From Escherichia phage ime, in the sequence record MN850576.1: a DNA stretch of 64,000 nucleotides. One strand, 5' to 3'. Below the pieces are notes generated by a model. That model did no database searches. It was not told where the DNA came from and saw only the letters and a list, made by a program, of their open reading frames with translations. Shown here piece by piece: positions 5,100-14,245 of this stretch (the first letter of the stretch is position 1; the number at the start of each line of letters is the position of its first letter). A program made the translations under genes and the position numbers.

Positions 5100-5941
5100 C
5101 AATAGTTCAGGTAGGTCGTTAAGCTACCCCGCACCATTACGTGCACAGCCATACGGTTTCCTGTATGGATCGGACTATCTCACTACCTTGTTACCAAGGC
5201 ACCTCTCATTTCGACCGCACTTGCTGGCCTACTCTACTCGCTTCTTCACACCAAACTATGTTGGAGCTATGCTTTCGATAGTCTCTGAACGTTACTACCA
5301 GGTGTAGTTTTTAGAGATATGTTTCCACTGTCTTCTTTGCTTTATGGCTCTGACCGTCTCATAAGGATACCCAAGATCCCTAATCTCACATTGTCGTAGA
5401 CCACTCTGCAACAGTTCACAAATCTCCATTACCTCATCCTCGGTCAGCACAGCGTTGGCATTATACTCACCGACTGGCCTTACTCTGAGCTCATTATCGT
5501 AGGCGTGTTTGATATTTTCACCGGGGGTAGTCCATTCCAGGTTCCAGTATGCATTGTTGTACTTATTTCCATCCTTATGGTTCACCCATGTGAGCTTTTC
5601 AGGATCAGGGTTCGGTACAAAGCATTCAGCAACCAAGTGGTGGACACCTTTTGTGCACTGCCTTCCATCGATGAGCATGGTTACGCAAAGGTAACCTCTA
5701 CCATTATCAAAACAAAACATTGTTGTATGATCACGTTTCGATAAAGGTATTGTTCCATCATCAAACACGATATACCCGTGATAATCAGCTGATCTAGCCA
5801 TTTTAACTACACCCCTTTAGTCTTCGCTGCGGATTAGCATATTGAGTTTTTACCATGTTTAGGTGTAAAAGTCAACTTAGCCTTCCCGTCAATTAAAGAG
5901 GTTTTCGACGTGCATCACTGCACGAAGCCACAATGTTATTT
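5100..5941 (-). mobile_element. putative group I intron carrying an HNH homing endonuclease ORF, inserted in the DNA polymerase gene
   Basis: Interrupts the polymerase after the His codon of motif C; exon 1 ends in U, element ends in G; possible P1 pairing of exon CCAU with GUGG 11-14 nt into the element; about 335 nt of non-coding sequence flank a 507-nt HNH ORF. Confidence 0.55.
5295..5801 (-). CDS. HNH homing endonuclease (I-HmuI-like, HNH_3 type with C-terminal helix-turn-helix)
   Basis: 168 aa; motif ...WVNHKDGNKYNNAYWNLEWTTPGEN... is typical of HNH_3 endonucleases; C-terminal ...LTEDEVMEICELL...WKHI resembles their DNA-binding tail; own RBS upstream. Confidence 0.8.
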   Translation of the reverse strand: MARSADYHGYIVFDDGTIPLSKRDHTTMFCFDNGRGYLCVTMLIDGRQCTKGVHHLVAECFVPNPDPEKLTWVNHKDGNKYNNAYWNLEWTTPGENIKHAYDNELRVRPVGEYNANAVLTEDEVMEICELLQSGLRQCEIRDLGYPYETVRAIKQRRQWKHISKNYTW

Positions 5942-8365
5942 ATGGTAATAAATAATACGACGAACACCTTCATCGTACCACCCACGCTTCACCATTTGGT
6001 GGTGCATGAGTATCCCAACTAAGTCACACAACGATGCACCACCATTTTGTTGGTATGCATTAAGTAAAGAGTGTTTAGATCGGGTCCAGATAGCATGACC
6101 ATCAAAAGAGTAGATAAACTTCTTACCCGTTGCTTCCCAGAATTTCTCCAGATCCTCTTTACGCCCTTTAAGACCAGGGTTGGCATCCCAAAGCGCATCG
6201 ATTACCCTTTGCCCCAACTCTGGGGAGATATCCAGCATGTCTGCAACTTTATCTTTTTGTGCCCCATACATAACCCCGTACGTGATAGGTTTACCGTCGT
6301 TACGAGACACCTCTCTACCTGCTACTTTCGTATATGCCTCAGCATTGTTTTGGTGGGCATCCCCGTTACTTACAACATCGTAATACAGGCCGTTGTCGAA
6401 CTCAAAGGCACCCCAAGCCCCGATAAGCTGCTCTAAGTTGGACCCGTCAATACCGATCTCAAAGTATCCTGGAGGAACACCCCACAGACTGCGCATCTCT
6501 TTACCCATAACCACTTTAGGAGATGGTTTAGGCATGTTTGCACAAATACTGTGTTTCTGTCGGGAAGTGTTTGTTAATCCAGAGCTTTTAGCAGGAAGCT
6601 TATGGTCAATCTTCAAACGTGGGTGATTAAGAAGACCAGTATCAACCTTATCCTCCTTGATTGGATCAAGGACCGATCTGCGGTTTCGCAATGATAACCA
6701 CAAGACGATATCTTTAGCCATCTCTCCGTTCAATTTTTCAAGATTCGGACATAGGTGTCCAAACGTATCTTTCAGTTGCGGAGAAGTAATAAGTGCCCTG
6801 GCTTTTCTGCGTATTTTCCCGAACACTTCCTTTTTAATCCTTTCGGAGTTAGGAAAGCTTCGGAACTTGTGCACTGTTGTCTGAAACTTAGCATCAGTTT
6901 TGTTCCAGAAGTTGATAATTAGGTCACAATACTCTGACTCTAAAAGCTCGTCCATGTATGCATATACTCGTGCATCAACATCTGCATCAGGTAGAGCTTT
7001 CTTCTTGCTGTCCTTAGTTACATCCTTAGTTCTCCACATTGTCGGAAGCCAACCAGCACTGATCAGGTATCGCTTAATGTCGTCCTGGTTGCTGATTTTC
7101 ATAGGTATCTTGCAGTCAGGCATTCGCTTCTGCTGCAGATCACTTATTGCCTGATCCATCAGCTCTTTAGGTAAAGGTTGTGGTGTGGAGGTGCCCTTAA
7201 TATAACCTCTCAAGAAATCAGCCATCTTGTCGGGGTCTTTGCAGCCCATCTCTTCGCACCATTTTATCCCCATCTTGCTGACATCTCCTGTGGAGGTAAA
7301 TGCTCGCTTAGGCGGGGCTTTGAATTCTAAAGCGCTCATGTCTACAGGATAGCCAAGCTTATCTTTTAACCATTTCCAACCATTATTGGAGATTGTCCCA
7401 TCTTGGTTAAACGGCTTTTCAGGGAACTTGGGCCGCTGAGACATTGACAACTCTTTTAAAGGAAGTTGAGGTTCAACACGATCAGCGATCTCTTTCATCC
7501 ACGCATCGCAACGGTCACGTAAAGCAATAGCTCCATCTATGTCGAAGTATACACCCTGACGGGCCTGCAGCTCCATCAGGAAGTGCTGCAGCATGCCTCG
7601 ACGTAATGCGTTCTTCCAGGTGATCTTCTTGAACCCTTTCGGCTTCTCTTTGGCTGGATCGTACATAAAGTTCTGCATGTCAGATTTGCCGTAGAATACA
7701 CCTTTTGATTCCGCTACCAGCTCTTTCCAGAGCAGCTCCTGGATGATAACGTCCTCGAATACACGATCCACATACTTCCACAACGGAAGATCGCGCCAGT
7801 CATCAATTTGAACTTTCTGGTTACCAAGGGCGTAGCCCCATGCCATAAGGCCGTGAGGACCAACAGGCTGCATTTTCTTAGTAACCGGGTTGAATACAGA
7901 GTCCGGACAACCTTTTGGTAAAGGGCGATCAGGCCACAAGATTCTGCTCATCGCCAACGTATCAAACAGGTTAACCTGGTGGTCGTTGATAGTCCCCATG
8001 CATTTAGGATCACGGAACATATCAAAATGAATACCGGATAATCTTTCCATCAGCATAAAGTCATAACTGTAGCAGTTATGGCAGTTCAAAGCTGTTGGTG
8101 ACCAGTCGGAATTGCCTGTAAGCCAACCTTCCAACTCCGAAAAATCTGCTATGCGAACTTCAAAATCTTTATGAAGAGTTTTCTTTGCCAGAATAAAGTT
8201 CTTAGCCTTCTCTATATCCTCTTCGGAGTAGTGTGTGCGGTCATTTAGAGGAAGGAACAGCATAAAACGGTTCTTATTCAGCTCTTTAAACAGGCCGCAG
8301 TGATAATAAAGATCTGGATCTTCCAGCAAACCGGATGACTCAAAGTCGAACGACCACATGCTCAT
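5942..8365 (-). CDS. DNA polymerase family A with 3'-5' exonuclease domain (putative exon 1; ORF track extends to 5936)
   Basis: N-terminal FDFESSGL matches the Exo I motif; GIDGSNLE...FDNG...NGDAH and K...YGVMYGA align with polymerase motifs A and B as I recall them from T7 gp5; ORF stops two codons after the motif C His. Confidence 0.8.
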
Positions 8366-8423: not shown

Positions 8424-10502
8424 TTAAAAAGGTGTTTCATCATCCTCAAAACCAGGGACCGGATCAGAGGATGGATCATCGTATTGGAGGTCTTCCTGCG
8501 TGTCAATAGGCTTGACAGTGGGTGTTACAACCTTATCAGCCACAACCTTGCCCATAGGTGTTTCTACAACTGCATGCTCCTGATCCTCAAACATAGCCTG
8601 AGGTCTCCAAACAACCTCCCCACCTTCTCCGTCTGTAAACATCTGCATTTCTTTGTCCCAGTACCAATTACTGGCATCATGGAACTTACCTGTATGCGGA
8701 TCCATAACTAAAGTGTCAGCAATACCTAAAGTTTTTGCTGGACGGTTTTTAAGACCTACCAGACGGACACGTCCACGAGAACGATCCACCATTTCTTCGG
8801 CCTCGACACCTATGACTACCCAACTCAACTGTTCAAGCCCAGCCGATCCTCGCAAATTCTCTTTTCGCACAGGATACCAGAAAGGTAATGGGTTACCATC
8901 CTTGTCCTTAGGGGGCACAATCTCTGTACGTTTGAGGTGAGCGATCACCAAGATAAACACGTTAAACTGCTTACAAAACGCAGCCAGTTGGGTCATAGCC
9001 ATGTCCAGTTCTTTTCGCTCATCCTTAACATTAAGCCCTGAAATTACCATGGACAGGTGATCCAGCACAATATAACGACAATGGTACAGGCAAACCATTT
9101 GCTTAAGCTTGGTAATCAACTCGTCCACTGGAATAGACCCGAAATGTTTGAACACTTTGATTTTTCCAGCTTTTGCCCATGATTGGTGAATCTCTGCGTG
9201 TTCTTGATCAGTTAAAAACTGGCTAGGATCTTCAACAAACTCTTTAACATCAAACCCTAACTGGTTTGCATACAAGGAGTTAATTGCTTCCTCTGGGTCC
9301 TCCTCAAGATGGATCATACATAGACGATCATCCTCTTCATAGTCATCAGCCTTCGGGCATGTTGGGTCCATTAGGTATCTTGCAATACAATGTTCCAGTT
9401 TTTTAGCTACGGTTGTTTTACCGCCACCTGATGGGCCTGTAAGCATTACAAGTGTCCCCTTGTGCAAGCCTTTTAACATTTTTTGCAGTTTTGGGAACTC
9501 TGCACTGATATCTACCCCGTTGGAAGTCTTTTTCCGCAAAGACTCGATAGAGAAGTCTTCTAAGTCCGACACAGCATCAGGCACGTATTTAACAGGATGC
9601 CGGAACATGTTGACAATATCTTCCAGCTTTTTAGCCTTCAGCATGTCACGGATATCTTTTACCCCGTCAGGGTCATTTACTTCACCAGGGTATTCTACGT
9701 GGTAAACGTTATCAGCCATCAAAAATGCTGCGATATTGTGCGTGGCCTCAACACCTTTAATGACGTGTTTTTGCTTCTCTACCTCGTTGGCTGCATCGTT
9801 ATCCATTGCCAGCACAACTGTTCCATAGCTACGGATAAACTTCTCATTGTTTGCAAAAGTATCTACTGCGTTTGCACATCCACAGTTAATTCCAACAAAA
9901 GGTAGGCAGGGTTTTCCTGCCAGATCACCACCGTTGATAACTGCATCGATCCCGTCCTGGACCTCTTTAGCCCACTGTTTCACCTTTGCCGGGGCTTTAG
10001 CATTGGTGAGAATCCCTTTTACTTGTATCTGATATGCAGCCTGCCATGCTGCAATAACATCGCCTTCCCCCTCACAAACGTTAATCTGCTTACGGTTGTT
10101 AGAAGATGCACACAGCTTTTGCCCAAACATTTGGGAGTTAGCCTTTACGATCCCAACCGTCGTAAAGTGCCCACGTTGCTCTTTGGGGATCGTCCAGTCA
10201 CGCTTTTTGAAACCGGACAGATTCCCGTAGCGGTCGTAATATGGGAAATATGTTGCAGTAACTGTCACACCGTCTTCTTGGGACAATGCTGATCGCACAC
10301 CAAAATATTGTGCAGCCATCAGACCGATATTTTGTTGTGGGACAGGGACAATTTTAGTATTTTCTAAAACAGTCTCTACAGTTTCAACTTCTTTTTCATC
10401 ACGATAGTCTCGTTTCACACTTCCCCCACTTTTATACTTAGTTGCTTTCGGGTTTGGCTCACCGAAACGGTTGTATGCAGATGCCATAAATTTACTTCCC
10501 AT
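8424..10502 (-). CDS. DNA primase-helicase (T7 gp4-like; TOPRIM primase plus DnaB-type helicase)
   Basis: 692 aa; TOPRIM motifs VCEGEGD and AMDNDAAN; Walker A GPSGGGKTT; acidic C-terminal tail ending ...EDDETPF. Confidence 0.8.
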   Translation of the reverse strand: MGSKFMASAYNRFGEPNPKATKYKSGGSVKRDYRDEKEVETVETVLENTKIVPVPQQNIGLMAAQYFGVRSALSQEDGVTVTATYFPYYDRYGNLSGFKKRDWTIPKEQRGHFTTVGIVKANSQMFGQKLCASSNNRKQINVCEGEGDVIAAWQAAYQIQVKGILTNAKAPAKVKQWAKEVQDGIDAVINGGDLAGKPCLPFVGINCGCANAVDTFANNEKFIRSYGTVVLAMDNDAANEVEKQKHVIKGVEATHNIAAFLMADNVYHVEYPGEVNDPDGVKDIRDMLKAKKLEDIVNMFRHPVKYVPDAVSDLEDFSIESLRKKTSNGVDISAEFPKLQKMLKGLHKGTLVMLTGPSGGGKTTVAKKLEHCIARYLMDPTCPKADDYEEDDRLCMIHLEEDPEEAINSLYANQLGFDVKEFVEDPSQFLTDQEHAEIHQSWAKAGKIKVFKHFGSIPVDELITKLKQMVCLYHCRYIVLDHLSMVISGLNVKDERKELDMAMTQLAAFCKQFNVFILVIAHLKRTEIVPPKDKDGNPLPFWYPVRKENLRGSAGLEQLSWVVIGVEAEEMVDRSRGRVRLVGLKNRPAKTLGIADTLVMDPHTGKFHDASNWYWDKEMQMFTDGEGGEVVWRPQAMFEDQEHAVVETPMGKVVADKVVTPTVKPIDTQEDLQYDDPSSDPVPGFEDDETPF

Positions 10503-11256
10503 TAATTCTGCTCCTTACTACAGGCTCGTTTGCTAAGAATACGGCTTTTGCCCAGCCACGTGGTGTGAGGCTTCGGATCATCTTCGTTCTTGCACTCTTC
10601 CCACCCAGCTTGGCGTGTTGCATGGAATACCCGCTAACCGCGTCAACTATTTGCGGGACAGGTTTTGTGGCCGGGATTATAAATCCATTACCTATCCAGC
10701 CGCAAGTTATTTTTGGATAGGCATCACGTGGAGCTATAAATTCAGGAAACCAGGGGTTTACATCATCCTCCGGTAAATACCCGCCATAGTCAGAAGGATG
10801 AAAACGGTAATCAGGTTTGCGCCACAGTGTGGACATAACACCAACAGGATTCTCTACATGCCACGGGCAATCGTAAATCTCTCCCAGCTCTTCCGCAACC
10901 CGAGCATCCTTTACAGCATTAATTTGGATCAAAGGATCCTTAGCCAGCTTTTTCTTAAAATGTGCAGCACCTGATACCGCTAAATGCGTGCACGGAGGAA
11001 ATGCAAGAATAAAGTCTGGAGCTGGATACATGCAAAAAGTTTCCTGAGGGAACCATGGGTCAATCCAATAATCCACATAGTGAATGTTAGGATGATCGGT
11101 TATCACCTCTGCATAACTGCCGTGGTCAGCACCTTCTGCATTAAAGCACAGGCACAGGTACCCAGCTTTTGCCCAGTCAATAACTGCACCACCAGACCCG
11201 TCAAATAGACTCCACACAACACCTTTGTGGTAGTGTTCTTTGTAGATGAATTTCAA
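10492..11256 (-). CDS. putative DNA (cytosine-5)-methyltransferase (short form)
   Basis: Motifs in canonical order: LFDGSGG (motif I), PPC...SGA (motif IV PC), HVENPVG (motif VI ENV). Start moved to TTG 11256, which has AGGAGA 7 nt upstream; the GTG at 11286 used by the ORF track lies inside the terminator hairpin. Confidence 0.55.
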   Translation of the reverse strand: MKFIYKEHYHKGVVWSLFDGSGGAVIDWAKAGYLCLCFNAEGADHGSYAEVITDHPNIHYVDYWIDPWFPQETFCMYPAPDFILAFPPCTHLAVSGAAHFKKKLAKDPLIQINAVKDARVAEELGEIYDCPWHVENPVGVMSTLWRKPDYRFHPSDYGGYLPEDDVNPWFPEFIAPRDAYPKITCGWIGNGFIIPATKPVPQIVDAVSGYSMQHAKLGGKSARTKMIRSLTPRGWAKAVFLANEPVVRSRINGK

Positions 11257-11274
11257 TTTGCTGTCTCCTAATGC

Positions 11275-11301
11275 AAAAAGCCCCACCCTTTCGGGCAGGG
11301 C
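11275..11301 (-). terminator. rho-independent terminator (minus strand)
   Basis: Same hairpin as at 292-313 (GCCCUGCCC-GAAA-GGGUGGGGC) followed by UUUUU on the minus strand; lies downstream of gene 11308..11790. Confidence 0.6.
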
Positions 11302-11307
11302 CTAGTG

Positions 11308-11790
11308 TTAAACCCGGATACCTATTGTATACTCGGTGGATACCAATGTCAAATCTAAATTTAAAATTTCTTGCATCTCATAATATGCGTCCAGGGTTAG
11401 ATACATTTCCCCATCCTTTTCTACATACTTGTCCAAGTGCTTGAGGCATTTCGGATAACTATCAAGTGCAGCTTTCAGGCACTCAAACTCTGTGCTGTTG
11501 ATGAATCCTTCCATCTTGGCTACCCGTTCTGGGGTAATGATAGCACTGTAGTGAGATTTAGCTTCCTGAATGCAATGGGTCCAAGCATCAACCTTCTCTT
11601 CGAAAAGTCCAAAGAACTTCTTTTTGGTGAGCTTCAGATTCTTTAAGTGCTTAAGCACTCGGTTGCCGATTACAGCCACATCACGAAACTTAAGGATCAC
11701 CTTGTCGATATCCTCGCGGCCTATTTTCACAAAGCAGGCTTCGCACATTTCAGGGGCTGCGTAACCTACTTTCCACATAAAATCTGACAT
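11308..11790 (-). CDS. hypothetical protein with N-terminal Cys motif (WKVGYAAPEMCEAC)
   Basis: 160-aa ORF; N-terminal motif is shared with ORF 30344..30544. Confidence 0.5.
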   Translation of the reverse strand: MSDFMWKVGYAAPEMCEACFVKIGREDIDKVILKFRDVAVIGNRVLKHLKNLKLTKKKFFGLFEEKVDAWTHCIQEAKSHYSAIITPERVAKMEGFINSTEFECLKAALDSYPKCLKHLDKYVEKDGEMYLTLDAYYEMQEILNLDLTLVSTEYTIGIRV

Positions 11791-11802
11791 ACCGCCTTCT
11801 CC

Positions 11803-12198
11803 TTATTCCTTAAAAGCTATGATATCATAGGAACTTGCAGATGATTCTGGTGAAGAATGACTCCAGTCCAGGTCATCAGAATAGTCAGCGTACTGTGCAC
11901 CACTACGTAGTTTATATTTTACCCACTTACCTGGTGCAGGGTTTTCACCACCTTCCCATACTTCCCAGCCTTCTGGCAGGCCGTCCTGGGGATAGTCATC
12001 CACCTCACTAATAATCTTAGGGTTTGGCACCAAGATCCCTGCAGGCTCTTCCTTCCGGATAAGTGTCCACACAACGTAGGTGTCTGAGCAGGCGCATGAT
12101 AGCAAAGTATATCCACTATTCAGAACTTCTGCAAGCTCTTTTTCAGCATCTTCCAATTTGGTTAAGTGGTATTGGATAATCTTCACACCTGTAATCAT
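11803..12198 (-). CDS. hypothetical protein
   Basis: 131-aa ORF. Confidence 0.5.
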   Translation of the reverse strand: MITGVKIIQYHLTKLEDAEKELAEVLNSGYTLLSCACSDTYVVWTLIRKEEPAGILVPNPKIISEVDDYPQDGLPEGWEVWEGGENPAPGKWVKYKLRSGAQYADYSDDLDWSHSSPESSASSYDIIAFKE

Positions 12199-12503
12199 CA
12201 GAAACCTCCCACTTCTTCAGCAAATGCAGCTGCTGTCGTCGCTGCATCCAGATAGGACTCTAGTTCACGGGCTGCACGTTTGTAAATTGAGTGGCGCATA
12301 TCGTTTGGCAGTTGGTGGAAGTCCACCTCTTCACCGTTGTGGTAAACATGCACATCGGTGATTTGTCTAAATCCGTAACAGTCAACATCAGAATCCCGGC
12401 ACTCCGGATCTGGCAACTGAACAACTGCCTGAGCTTCCACAGTAAACATATCGTCAAGTTCGAAATCGATTTCAAAAGTGTATGGTTTATAACGTTTCAT
12501 CAT
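12198..12503 (-). CDS. hypothetical protein
   Basis: 101-aa ORF, acidic. Confidence 0.5.
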   Translation of the reverse strand: MMKRYKPYTFEIDFELDDMFTVEAQAVVQLPDPECRDSDVDCYGFRQITDVHVYHNGEEVDFHQLPNDMRHSIYKRAARELESYLDAATTAAAFAEEVGGF

Positions 12504-12516
12504 TTGATTGTACTCT

Positions 12517-13842
12517 TTATTGATCAGAATTATCTTTCGTAATTAAGGTCTGGGTAAGTTTGTAATAGCGGAAGCCACCGCCACCTTGCCAGCTTGCAGA
12601 CTTAGAAATACCACCTTGATCTTCACCATCAATCACTTTTTGCAAGCGAGGGATAATATGGGTATGACAATGATCACCCAGTTCGATCAAGATCCAACGT
12701 CTTTTCATCTTGTGGGCTACAGCAGCAGTAGTTCCCGAACCGCCGAATGAATCCAATACCAAATCACCTTCTCGCGTACACATTTCGAGAATCCGCTTCA
12801 AAAGCGCTTCTGGTTTTTTTCCATTTTTGAAACTAACGCCGCCTTCATTTGCTATTCCATTCCAACTAATGTCTGTCCAAACATCAGTTATTAGTTCCGC
12901 AGGTTGCATCTCACCGTCAATTTCCAAAAGCCTGTTGGAGTAAAAGACCATTTGCCTACCATTTGCGATATAAAATCCTTCAACATCCTCATTCGGATGT
13001 GCATAAACCTTATCCCTATCTTTCTTTGACTTCTCGATAGTTTCTTTTCTCTTTATTTTAGCGCCACCACCAATTGCAACAGATTGAAATACACGTTCTG
13101 CATTATCAATTGCGAATTGTGCTAATTCATCATCGAATGTGTCAGGCAGTTTTTTCTTAGCTTCTTTTGCATCTTTATAGCCATTGGCCTTTGCAAACGC
13201 ATCGGCAATACCGCACCACGTCCAATTTTTATAATGGTCATCCGGGTTTAATAGGTATTTGTTATATCCTGTATCATACCCTTTAGGTATATAGATTTTG
13301 TTAAGCGGTTTCTGGGTGCGATCTTTTGCATATACAAGCAAAAAGTTTGCTGTGGAGAAAACTGTGGCTCCTGTTGCCTTAAATCCCGAAGGGGAATTTG
13401 TGGTCATCGATATGGTATTTAACTGATTTGCACGACCAAAAATCTCGTCCATCAAAACTTTTAAATACGCCATTTCGCAATCATCTAAGTGAACGAATAT
13501 TACCCCATCATCACTTAGAAGATTACGAATTATTTCTAACCTATCCCTCATTAAGCCCAGCCAAATGGAATGCTCAAGGCTATCATCGTAGTGCTCAAAA
13601 GCCCTTCCAGTATTGAATGGTGGGTCTATGTAAACACATTTCACTTTGCCTGCATACTCTTGCTCTAGCGCCTTCAATGCTAATAAGTTATCTCCAAAAA
13701 TCAGTTTATTATCAAAAATATCGTTTTCGGTCACTTTCTGGCTGTGGTAAGACTTGCTAGAATCTTCTAACAAAATGTGCGGCTCTAACTTTTTGCGCTC
13801 GTTTTTACCTATCCAGGTTAGTTCTAATTTGGTTTTACTCAT
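12517..13842 (-). CDS. DNA methyltransferase (N6-adenine or N4-cytosine, beta class)
   Basis: 441 aa; catalytic motif IDPPFNTG (DPPF/Y) followed later by AdoMet motif DSFGGSGTT, the order typical of beta-class amino-methyltransferases. Confidence 0.8.
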   Translation of the reverse strand: MSKTKLELTWIGKNERKKLEPHILLEDSSKSYHSQKVTENDIFDNKLIFGDNLLALKALEQEYAGKVKCVYIDPPFNTGRAFEHYDDSLEHSIWLGLMRDRLEIIRNLLSDDGVIFVHLDDCEMAYLKVLMDEIFGRANQLNTISMTTNSPSGFKATGATVFSTANFLLVYAKDRTQKPLNKIYIPKGYDTGYNKYLLNPDDHYKNWTWCGIADAFAKANGYKDAKEAKKKLPDTFDDELAQFAIDNAERVFQSVAIGGGAKIKRKETIEKSKKDRDKVYAHPNEDVEGFYIANGRQMVFYSNRLLEIDGEMQPAELITDVWTDISWNGIANEGGVSFKNGKKPEALLKRILEMCTREGDLVLDSFGGSGTTAAVAHKMKRRWILIELGDHCHTHIIPRLQKVIDGEDQGGISKSASWQGGGGFRYYKLTQTLITKDNSDQ

Positions 13843-13903
13843 CGTTTGGTGCTCTCCTTAGTTTTTGTGGGGAGGAGTGCCTCCCCTTTATACTCACATC
13901 TTA

Positions 13904-14245
13904 CTACTCAAGGTCTTCAGAGTCAAGCTCAAAAAGAATCAAACTGTGCATACCTGCAGAGAGATTAACACACCCTGCAACAATAAGGGTTTGATAGTAA
14001 GGTTCAGCACCCTCAATGTCTTCGTTAAAATCCACAACAAGGTAGTCACCTTTGTTAAAGGTGTATTTGTCCGATGTAAACGCAAAACCTGCCCAGTCCC
14101 CTACTGCAGGATCTTTATCAGTCACCTTTGTTAGCAGTAGATCTTTTTCACGAGATCTTTTAGTAAAATCGTGAATCACAACATCCTTCTCTTCAGGAGT
14201 CGGATTGCCACACACGTAGTTAACGATATTTCTCCACAAACTCAT
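13904..14245 (-). CDS. hypothetical protein
   Basis: 113-aa ORF; stop overlaps helicase gene start region. Confidence 0.5.
   Translation of the reverse strand: MSLWRNIVNYVCGNPTPEEKDVVIHDFTKRSREKDLLLTKVTDKDPAVGDWAGFAFTSDKYTFNKGDYLVVDFNEDIEGAEPYYQTLIVAGCVNLSAGMHSLILFELDSEDLE

Follow-up and report, generated by a model that had tools for sequence, protein, structure and literature searches.

Orphan DNA methyltransferases, which are encoded without a partner nuclease and are thought to pre-empt host restriction, are known from phages (T4, T1 and P1 Dam) as well as prophages (M.EcoGII-type enzymes), and have reportedly been reviewed by Murphy et al. 2013. The window analysed here, i.e., the whole stretch of 64,000 nucleotides from Escherichia phage ime (sequence record MN850576.1), carries two methylase genes, a large one at 12517-13842 and a small one at 10492-11256, both on the minus strand and located among the genes for DNA polymerase, a primase/helicase, a Pif1/Dda-like SF1 helicase and rIIB. 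We consider it likely that they encode two independent stand-alone (orphan) DNA methyltransferases of different origins, the large one being a captured host Mod and the small one a minimal Dcm-like C5-cytosine enzyme.

For the large enzyme, a known system for comparison is the Type III enzyme EcoP15I. In its structure, Mod consists of an N-terminal domain (NTD, residues 14-60), a methyltransferase (MTase) core (62-262 and 390-516), a domain for target recognition (TRD, 263-384) and a C-terminal domain (CTD, 539-644). The protein dimerises via the NTD and MTase domains into a stand-alone methylase, and the CTD of one protomer docks Res; methylation by Mod dimers without Res is a known feature of the Type III family. 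The counterpart of the small enzyme is the 236-aa Dcm of the Drexlerviridae phage K42 (KarlJaspers/Bas06 type), whose gene has been found to carry the escape mutations from retron Ec86 (bioRxiv 10.1101/2023.08.16.553469). Expression of K42 Dcm raises 5-methylcytosine (5mC) on the retron msDNA, as determined by LC-MS (liquid chromatography coupled to mass spectrometry), and a C82A/E128A/K175A/K176A mutant does not (bioRxiv 10.1101/2023.08.16.553469).

The existence of both genes is not news, as they have been public in rV5-type genomes since 2006 and annotated as methylases; the curated BASEL genomes label the two open reading frames (ORFs) 'putative N6 adenine methyltransferase' and 'Dcm-like C5 cytosine methyltransferase', and the original rV5 genome paper makes no mention of methylases. 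New elements are the naming of a donor system, the precise loss of the region that would dock Res, and the finding that the cassette is polymorphic for presence and absence. The 3.5-kb region with both genes shows 99.5% identity to Escherichia phage rV5_ev146 and 98.8% to V5/rV5, and matches 117 phage records, nearly all of them Vequintavirus; judged by its sequence, the window belongs to an rV5-like Vequintavirus. The two ORFs, and also the five motifs on which the first-pass annotation had based its two methyltransferases, have been found at the places given there.

The large enzyme and its probable bacterial donor

The features of the large gene and its insertion site are as follows.

12517-13842, minus strand: solo Type III Mod-like N6-adenine DNA methyltransferase gene, 441 aa (PF01555, PADLOC MTase_III and PDB matches)
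13615-13626, minus strand: motif IV DPPF, residues 73-76, catalytic motif of the large enzyme, present in all four phage copies and the E. coli copy
12727-12747, minus strand: motif I FGGSGTT, residues 366-372, AdoMet-binding, downstream of motif IV (sequence, copies compared)
12506-13855, no strand assigned: host-derived cassette; 12508-13855 matches E. coli mod, and ~12506-13838 is absent from Bas59
12198-12503, minus strand: 101-aa ORF, at whose ribosome-binding site and start codon the cassette has been inserted (phrog_4240; junction alignments)

The large enzyme matches PF01555 (E=8.5e-43) and, over profile positions 2-443 of 575 only, the PADLOC MTase_III model for Type III methyltransferases (PDLC03636, E=3.5e-202); its closest solved relatives in a phmmer search against the PDB are the Mod proteins of H. 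pylori (6k0w, 3e-29) and EcoP15I (4zcf, 1.2e-23). Since DPPF precedes FGGSGTT, the enzyme belongs to the beta class, and the beta-class amino-methyltransferase of the first-pass annotation can be specified as a predicted Type III Mod-like N6-adenine methyltransferase. The order of DPPF, TRD and FGGSGTT is shared by the E. coli Mod WP_024226319, EcoP15I Mod and H. pylori ModH5. The phage protein keeps the N-terminal region, the full beta-class catalytic core and a nearly unchanged TRD, and stops at the border to the C-terminal domain; according to the offset from the alignment to EcoP15I Mod, this end lies near residue 516 of EcoP15I. A C-terminal domain contacting Res is absent, the E. coli homologue being 129 residues longer. 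Because of this alignment position, the missing part would correspond to the Res-docking CTD of EcoP15I, an equivalence drawn by position, with no similarity detected.

Homologues in bacteria have been collected by a scan of one genome per bacterial species, which yielded 78 usable loci. The proteins measure 540-620 aa and lie in a conserved array composed of an SNF2 helicase (~960 aa), variable cargo, Mod and a protein of 890-950 aa, of which the flanking members are, according to Pfam and PADLOC, an SNF2 helicase of DrmD-like type and a Type III Res (ResIII helicase); an endonuclease domain was recognised in one bacterial Res homologue (Pseudomonas). In the phage, small ORFs and the Pif1/Dda-like SF1 helicase stand beside the large gene in place of the res found in its bacterial relatives, and it is therefore an orphan derived from this family rather than part of a system. 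Neither the neighbouring ORFs (160, 131, 101 and 113 aa) nor the helicase gave a nuclease-family match in Pfam/PHROG-type profile searches, in keeping with the earlier claim that no restriction endonuclease adjoins the methylase genes.

In 24 of 5,426 complete E. coli genomes, the chromosome bears a mod copy that covers 99% of the phage gene at 94.7% nucleotide identity. In a blastn comparison with one E. coli island, phage positions 12508-13855 align with the 5' 1.35 kb of mod at 93.7% nucleotide identity, and at the protein level 419 of 438 residues are identical to the 568-aa E. coli Mod WP_024226319 (96%, residues 2-439). The NTD, catalytic core and TRD of the E. coli protein are all represented in the phage protein. 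Only three substitutions fall within the TRD, and owing to this near identity the phage and E. coli Mod are expected to recognise the same sequence. The phage protein differs from its counterpart in lacking the last ~129 residues, and the phage gene in having no res, SNF2 or other island genes alongside and in standing under the phage's own ribosome-binding site in a lytic phage. Compared to phage orphan methyltransferases in general, the large gene of rV5-type phages thus has a nameable donor and comes without the nuclease-docking domain.

The E. coli island has been inspected in two strains, 2014C-3011 (human) and 90-1 (chicken), which share the same Mod and Res proteins. In both it is bounded by integrase remnants, in 2014C-3011 next to tRNA-Sec, and it consists of genes for a MAD1-like helix-turn-helix (HTH) protein, an SNF2 helicase, an Abi_2 protein, an AIPR protein (shortened in one of the two strains), the 568-aa Mod and a 912-aa ResIII helicase. 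The full gene sets of DISARM or MADS (DrmA/DrmB/DrmD/DrmMI or mad1-8) are not present in the island: its MAD1-like HTH protein scores 81.3 bits against a cut-off of 80, and its DrmD-like SNF2 helicase scores 697 against 950, below the cut-off. By its gene content, the donor island is best described as a putative Type III-like restriction-modification (RM) system with an SNF2 accessory helicase.

The variable slot between SNF2 helicase and Mod holds other defence genes: in E. coli these are Abi_2 and AIPR, in Nitrincola there is an OLD-like AAA_15 ATPase, and a metagenomic contig has Kiwa (KwaA/KwaB). One SNF2-Mod-Res island is flanked by GmrSD and a DUF3584 protein; the slot looks like a hotspot for defence cargo within a Type III-like operon. 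Bacterial homologues of ~440 aa had been considered as further phage captures of other Mod alleles, and those examined have turned out to be decayed or split genes in bacterial islands. A 441-aa protein of the phage type with 92-94% identity is encoded by Catenovulum agarivorans DS-2 contig31 and by a Gammaproteobacteria metagenome-assembled genome; these copies are probably rV5-like phage DNA within the assemblies.

At the DNA level, the similarity to mod starts 13 nt upstream of the ATG and reaches as far as the stop codon of the phage gene (12508-13855). This stop codon is the product of an 11-nt deletion and frameshift near E. coli codon 441. Apart from the stretch 12506-13838, whose absence leaves an empty site, the genome of the Vequintavirus Bas59 (EduardKellenberger) is collinear with the window. 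Junction alignments have located AAA[CT]GATGA at the start of E. coli mod, at the start of the phage 101-aa ORF and at both cassette ends, which points to insertion or excision via microhomology. The possibility that the 101-aa ORF is a remnant of the Mod C-terminus, an idea raised by weak 'methyltransferase' PHROG matches, has been rejected: it has no similarity to the E. coli Mod or island, and it is unchanged in Bas59, which has no cassette.

At >=90% identity, the small gene is found in 116 phage records and the large gene in 86. All phage copies of the large gene end at the same point, and the catalytic motifs are intact in each. The ratio of nonsynonymous to synonymous substitution rates (dN/dS) is 0.06-0.13 for phage-phage and phage-host pairs, with a synonymous divergence (dS) of up to 0.37 between phage copies; given this low ratio at such a divergence, and since all copies are cut alike, selection has preserved the truncated gene over a long period. 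The dS between the rV5 and FV3 copies (0.37) exceeds that of either phage copy against the E. coli gene (0.21), a pattern that would agree with a gene of E. coli-like ancestry evolving faster in phages, or being exchanged repeatedly.

The small enzyme and its family

The small gene shows the following features.

10492-11256, minus strand: minimal Dcm-like C5-cytosine DNA methyltransferase gene, 254 aa, TTG start (fold, motifs, homologue)
11188-11205, minus strand: motif I FDGSGG, residues 18-23, AdoMet loop; aligns with DNMT3B, M.HaeIII, M.HhaI and CmoX
10990-10998, minus strand: motif IV PPC (FPPC), with Cys89 as predicted nucleophile; P, P and C invariant in a 37-sequence alignment, the Cys corresponding to C82 of K42 Dcm
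10840-10854, minus strand: motif VI ENPVG, with Glu135 as equivalent of the ENV glutamate; E, N and P invariant in the 37 sequences, the Glu corresponding to E128 of K42 Dcm
10711-10731, minus strand: PRDAYPK at the place of motif VIII (QxRxR), before strand 184-189; R, D, Y and K invariant, Lys182 corresponding to K175 of K42 Dcm
10555-10578, minus strand: IRSLTPRG, tentative motif X equivalent, followed by the C-terminal helix (weak hhalign match, E=0.35; helix pattern of the model)
11278-11352, minus strand: promoter-like TTGACA-17-TACAAT (11352-11324), then a terminator-like hairpin (11303-11278) (consensus scan, 11/12 matches)

The K42 Dcm protein is 54% identical to the small protein (E=2e-86), and the rV5 counterparts of its residues C82, E128 and K175 are Cys89, Glu135 and Lys182, with Ile183 standing at the place of K176. 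The two share their family, a similar size, the PPC, ENP and PK(K) residues, a model that superposes best on DNMT3, and a stand-alone gene among early or replication genes. They differ in the phage groups to which they belong, Drexlerviridae for K42 and Vequintavirinae for rV5, in the K176 position, in a 10-residue N-terminal extension of the rV5 protein and in its longer loop between residues 197 and 212. The AlphaFold2 (AF2) model (pLDDT 85.6) adopts the three-dimensional fold of C5 methyltransferases, and the protein matches phrog_757. Motifs I, IV and VI, which the first-pass annotation had read in the C5 order, are canonical, and a check against non-methyltransferase Rossmann enzymes, by which the assignment might have fallen, has come out in favour of the C5 fold. 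On the analogy of the 54%-identical homologue with its 5mC activity, the small enzyme is taken to be a minimal Dcm-like C5-cytosine methyltransferase.

Several features weigh against this assignment. The small protein has no Pfam or NCBIfam match and does not reach the PF00145 gathering threshold, so that the profile search proposed earlier as a check on the C5 fold has failed for the protein itself and succeeded for three homologues, which pass with 24.7-28.5 bits against a cut-off of 22 bits over profile positions 4-94 only. From the sequence, neither motif VIII nor motif X can be recognised: QxRxR is absent, and in its place a conserved PRDAYPK(K)T, whose Lys residues may substitute for QxRxR, precedes the next core strand. 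Aligning its profile directly with M.HhaI and with a profile of CmoX, which was tried for placing motifs VIII-X, gave a significant match in motifs I-IV only. Finally, the CCWGG specificity of K42 Dcm has been assumed by analogy and not measured.

Compared to canonical C5 enzymes (M.HhaI, M.HaeIII, E. coli Dcm, DNMT3A/B), the small enzyme is ~70-220 residues shorter, and ~35 residues replace the TRD and motif IX; GN(A/S)V is as unrecognisable as QxRxR. These ~35 residues, which link the motif VIII-like strand to the C-terminal helices, do not amount to a small domain with TRD and motif IX, which agrees with the minimal target-recognition domain expected earlier for a protein of about 255 aa. 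Near the C-terminus the AF2 model forms a helix-turn-long-helix, a pattern that would fit a motif X region, and hhalign aligns the region KMIRSLTPRGWAKAV with motif X of CmoX (residues 333-364; E=0.35, a weak match), with RS where M.HhaI has GN and CmoX has GR. If IRSLTPRG and the last helix are the motif X equivalent, the model suggests that the small domain is essentially absent. The length of 254-255 aa is supported by the gene start, since the TTG at 11256 lies behind an AGGAG ribosome-binding site and the upstream GTG at 11286 sits inside the terminator-like hairpin.

This shortness is family-wide. Its members measure about 230 aa; clustered at 50% identity, they fall into 2,056 groups, almost all of 205-260 aa. 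The family is present in 1,503 of 50,697 phage records (3%), including Drexlerviridae, Dhillonvirus, Krischvirus RB49, phiKO2, Klebsiella T1-like and rV5-like phages, and is among the commonest methylase families of enterobacterial phages. No partner nuclease gene stands beside the small methylase in the three contexts examined (rV5, KarlJaspers and a lambdoid phage), and the gene has no DNA-level match in E. coli genomes. A split C5 methylase in the style of M.AquI alpha/beta, in which a neighbouring ORF supplies the C-terminal motifs, has been rejected, since the neighbouring ORFs are different in each phage that was examined and K42 Dcm makes 5mC on its own.

The last 11 nt of the small gene (10492-10502) overlap the start of the primase/helicase gene (8424-10502), which suggests that the methylase may be translationally coupled with the replication genes. 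The promoter-like site lies within the end of the upstream ORF and is followed immediately by the hairpin, a strong one, and then by the ribosome-binding site and TTG of the small gene; this order of promoter, terminator and gene is odd and might limit the expression of the small gene.

Proposed functions and competing explanations

From the comparison of phage and island genes, the best reading is that the solo Mod would pre-methylate phage DNA against the donor Type III-like system. A Vequintavirus ancestor would have captured a Type III Mod from an E. coli-type island (MAD1-like HTH - SNF2/DrmD-like helicase - Abi/AIPR cargo - Mod - Res). The captured protein would be made early along with the replication genes and, acting as a Mod dimer, would mark with N6-methyladenine (m6A) the sites that the host system itself modifies; phage DNA, in virions as well as during replication, would then be read as 'self' by island-bearing hosts, whichever host came before. 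Without its C-terminal domain, the phage Mod would not be expected to arm the host Res. Protection from host restriction had been proposed for both enzymes; in the case of the large gene, descent from a host Mod-Res island lends this proposal strong backing, and the likely target of the protection is the donor island.

A number of observations speak against pre-methylation as the function of the large enzyme. In BASEL phenotyping, Vequintavirinae have been found 'exceptionally susceptible' to the RM systems tested, and any protection by methylases must therefore be narrow rather than general. The island is rare, being present in 0.4% of the complete E. coli genomes, and its Res-like protein shows a ResIII match and no nuclease domain in Pfam. 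Some Vequintaviruses manage without the large gene, which is missing from Bas59 and ~30 other records. Two further points come from the related phage Bas51 (WalterGehring), which has an orthologue of the large enzyme with 97% identity: its m6A at GTAC could equally be made by the Mod-like protein or by bas51_0200, a 272-aa protein with NPPF, a gamma-like motif order and no Pfam match; and in our judgement the 4-bp palindrome GTAC is atypical for a Type III Mod and would suit the small gamma-type bas51_0200 better.

The underlying data stem from a nanopore study of Bas51, which called 6mA only and found a GATC methylase as the trigger of retrons Asa1/Squ1 (PMC12548924). According to its source table, wild-type m6A has been counted at 1,405 GATC, 509 GTAC and 576 other positions, and in the GATC-methylase mutant T83P at 35 GATC, 511 GTAC and 349 other positions (PMC12548924). 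The Bas51 genome contains 703 GATC and 258 GTAC sites, i.e., 1,406 and 516 adenines, and as the published counts match these totals, both sites are essentially fully methylated. GTAC methylation persists in the T83P mutant and is therefore made by a phage enzyme other than the GATC methylase. The identification of the published Bas51 'N6 adenine methyltransferase' with the large enzyme has been considered and is wrong, as residues D69, D79 and T83 belong to the 177-aa bas51_0176, which lies outside the window. The sites of the Mod-like enzyme may be among the 349 'other' m6A positions. Both the full GTAC methylation of Bas51 virion DNA and these 349 positions count in favour of the proposed pre-methylation, as the nearest data on the large enzyme's specificity.

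An explanation that we regard as unlikely is that the truncated Mod, which shares 96% identity with host Mod over the dimerising NTD and MTase regions, serves mainly as a decoy, forming heterodimers with host Mod that cannot dock Res and thereby poison the restriction complex, an effect that could act alongside methylation. The truncation at the boundary of MTase domain and CTD would fit such a role, as would the division of labour in EcoP15I, where the ModA CTD docks Res while the NTD and MTase domains dimerise, and the common end point of every phage copy. The intact DPPF and FGGSGTT in all copies and the purifying selection on the whole gene, including the TRD, fit selection for catalysis and site recognition instead, and the CTD-Res contact is known for EcoP15I only and has been carried over by position, not by detected similarity. 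There is likewise a small chance that the phage Mod combines two anti-restriction functions, methylating phage DNA at the sites of the host system and also disarming host complexes as heterodimers, in which case the domain loss would be adaptive and not an accident of capture. It is improbable that the methylases mainly serve the phage's own biology, e.g., by timing replication or packaging, by telling strands apart, by controlling gene expression or by interfering with host processes. Both genes do lie inside the replication module, these phages stay sensitive to many RM systems, and expression of a phage methylase (the GATC enzyme) can be toxic to cells; against this, the large gene is dispensable, as its absence from Bas59 and the other records shows, and derives from the Mod of a restriction system with its TRD preserved, an accessory copy of a defence specificity being hard to square with housekeeping, and the small gene is scattered over unrelated phage families at differing genome positions. 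That one or both genes are decaying remnants without function has a next to negligible probability. The large gene is a truncated copy with a stop from a frameshift, ~440-aa bacterial versions are decayed or split and the small protein has no Pfam match, but the selection analysis (low dN/dS over considerable dS, with all motifs intact) comes close to refuting this explanation for the large gene, and the small family keeps invariant catalytic residues over >2,000 clusters and has an active member.

For the small enzyme, the proposed role is that it would methylate cytosines of phage (and host) DNA at a short motif, with evasion of 5mC-sensitive restriction as the probable benefit. The one consequence on record for a relative is a cost, as such enzymes are known to trigger retron Ec86 (bioRxiv 10.1101/2023.08.16.553469); rV5-type phages may therefore be sensed by Ec86. 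A different chemistry or substrate has to be weighed here, namely that the protein is not a plain SAM-dependent DNA 5mC methylase and transfers another group (carboxymethyl from Cx-SAM, like CmoX) or acts on another substrate (ssDNA, RNA or tRNA, like DNMT2). CmoX of Synechococcus phage S-B43 (PDB 8YF3) is indeed a phage protein with the C5-MTase fold and PPC, and is the second-best structural match of the small enzyme. It differs in its 372 aa, its full TRD, the Arg350 in motif X and its encoding beside CmoA and CmoY, none of which hold for the rV5 protein; CmoX relatives measure ~370 aa and match PF00145 in full. Of the features marking CmoX (SPPC, an Arg at the position of M.HhaI N304 and a nearby gene for the Cx-SAM synthase CmoA), none has been found: the small enzyme has FPPC, a Ser in the weak alignment at the position of CmoX R350 with an Arg one residue earlier, and no CmoA homologue occurs in the window or the Bas51 genome. 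As LC-MS has detected 5mC and not 5cxmC for the 54%-identical K42 Dcm, we hold this explanation to be very improbable.

If pre-methylation is the function of the large enzyme, the gene would become a testable counter-defence with a named target, an E. coli SNF2-Mod-Res island, rather than a generic 'orphan methylase'. Phages of the rV5 type without the large gene would be restricted on the ~0.4% of E. coli strains that bear the island, cattle and human isolates included, and naturally cassette-free Vequintaviruses such as Bas59 would already be restricted on island-bearing strains, which bears on the prediction of host range for rV5-like phages in O157 biocontrol and therapy.

Further methylases and neighbouring genes

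Vequintavirus genomes carry two more N6-adenine methyltransferase genes, which brings the number of methylases to four instead of two. In Bas51, these are bas51_0176 (L100:42092-42625), a 177-aa NPPY enzyme that makes the GATC methylation and triggers retrons Asa1/Squ1, and the 272-aa bas51_0200 (L101:9069-9887). In the window and the Bas51 genome, GTAC has an observed/expected ratio of 0.56-0.59 and is as depleted as CTAG; avoidance and masking of this site coexist in Bas51, where all 258 sites carry m6A on both strands by the published counts. Site avoidance has been tried as a clue to specificity and abandoned, the ratio of 0.71 for CCWGG being uninformative and the GTAC depletion not attributable to either window gene.

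The 131-aa ORF (11803-12198) and the 113-aa ORF (13904-14245), which flank the methylase genes, show weak PHROG 'DNA ligase' matches (E 6e-7 and 1.5e-4, respectively) without Pfam support. The polymerase ORF of the window (5936-8365) encodes 809 aa and is shorter than the 925-aa CarlMeissner annotation; its start or intron/intein layout may differ. Homing-endonuclease genes interrupt or adjoin the genes for DNA polymerase, terminase and anaerobic NTP reductase in Bas51. Dozens of MG0656xx records named 'Campylobacter phage', with C. jejuni given as host, share 97% identity with rV5-like phages of E. coli over the methylase region; the same records also contain T1-like sequences, and mislabelling or contamination is suspected.

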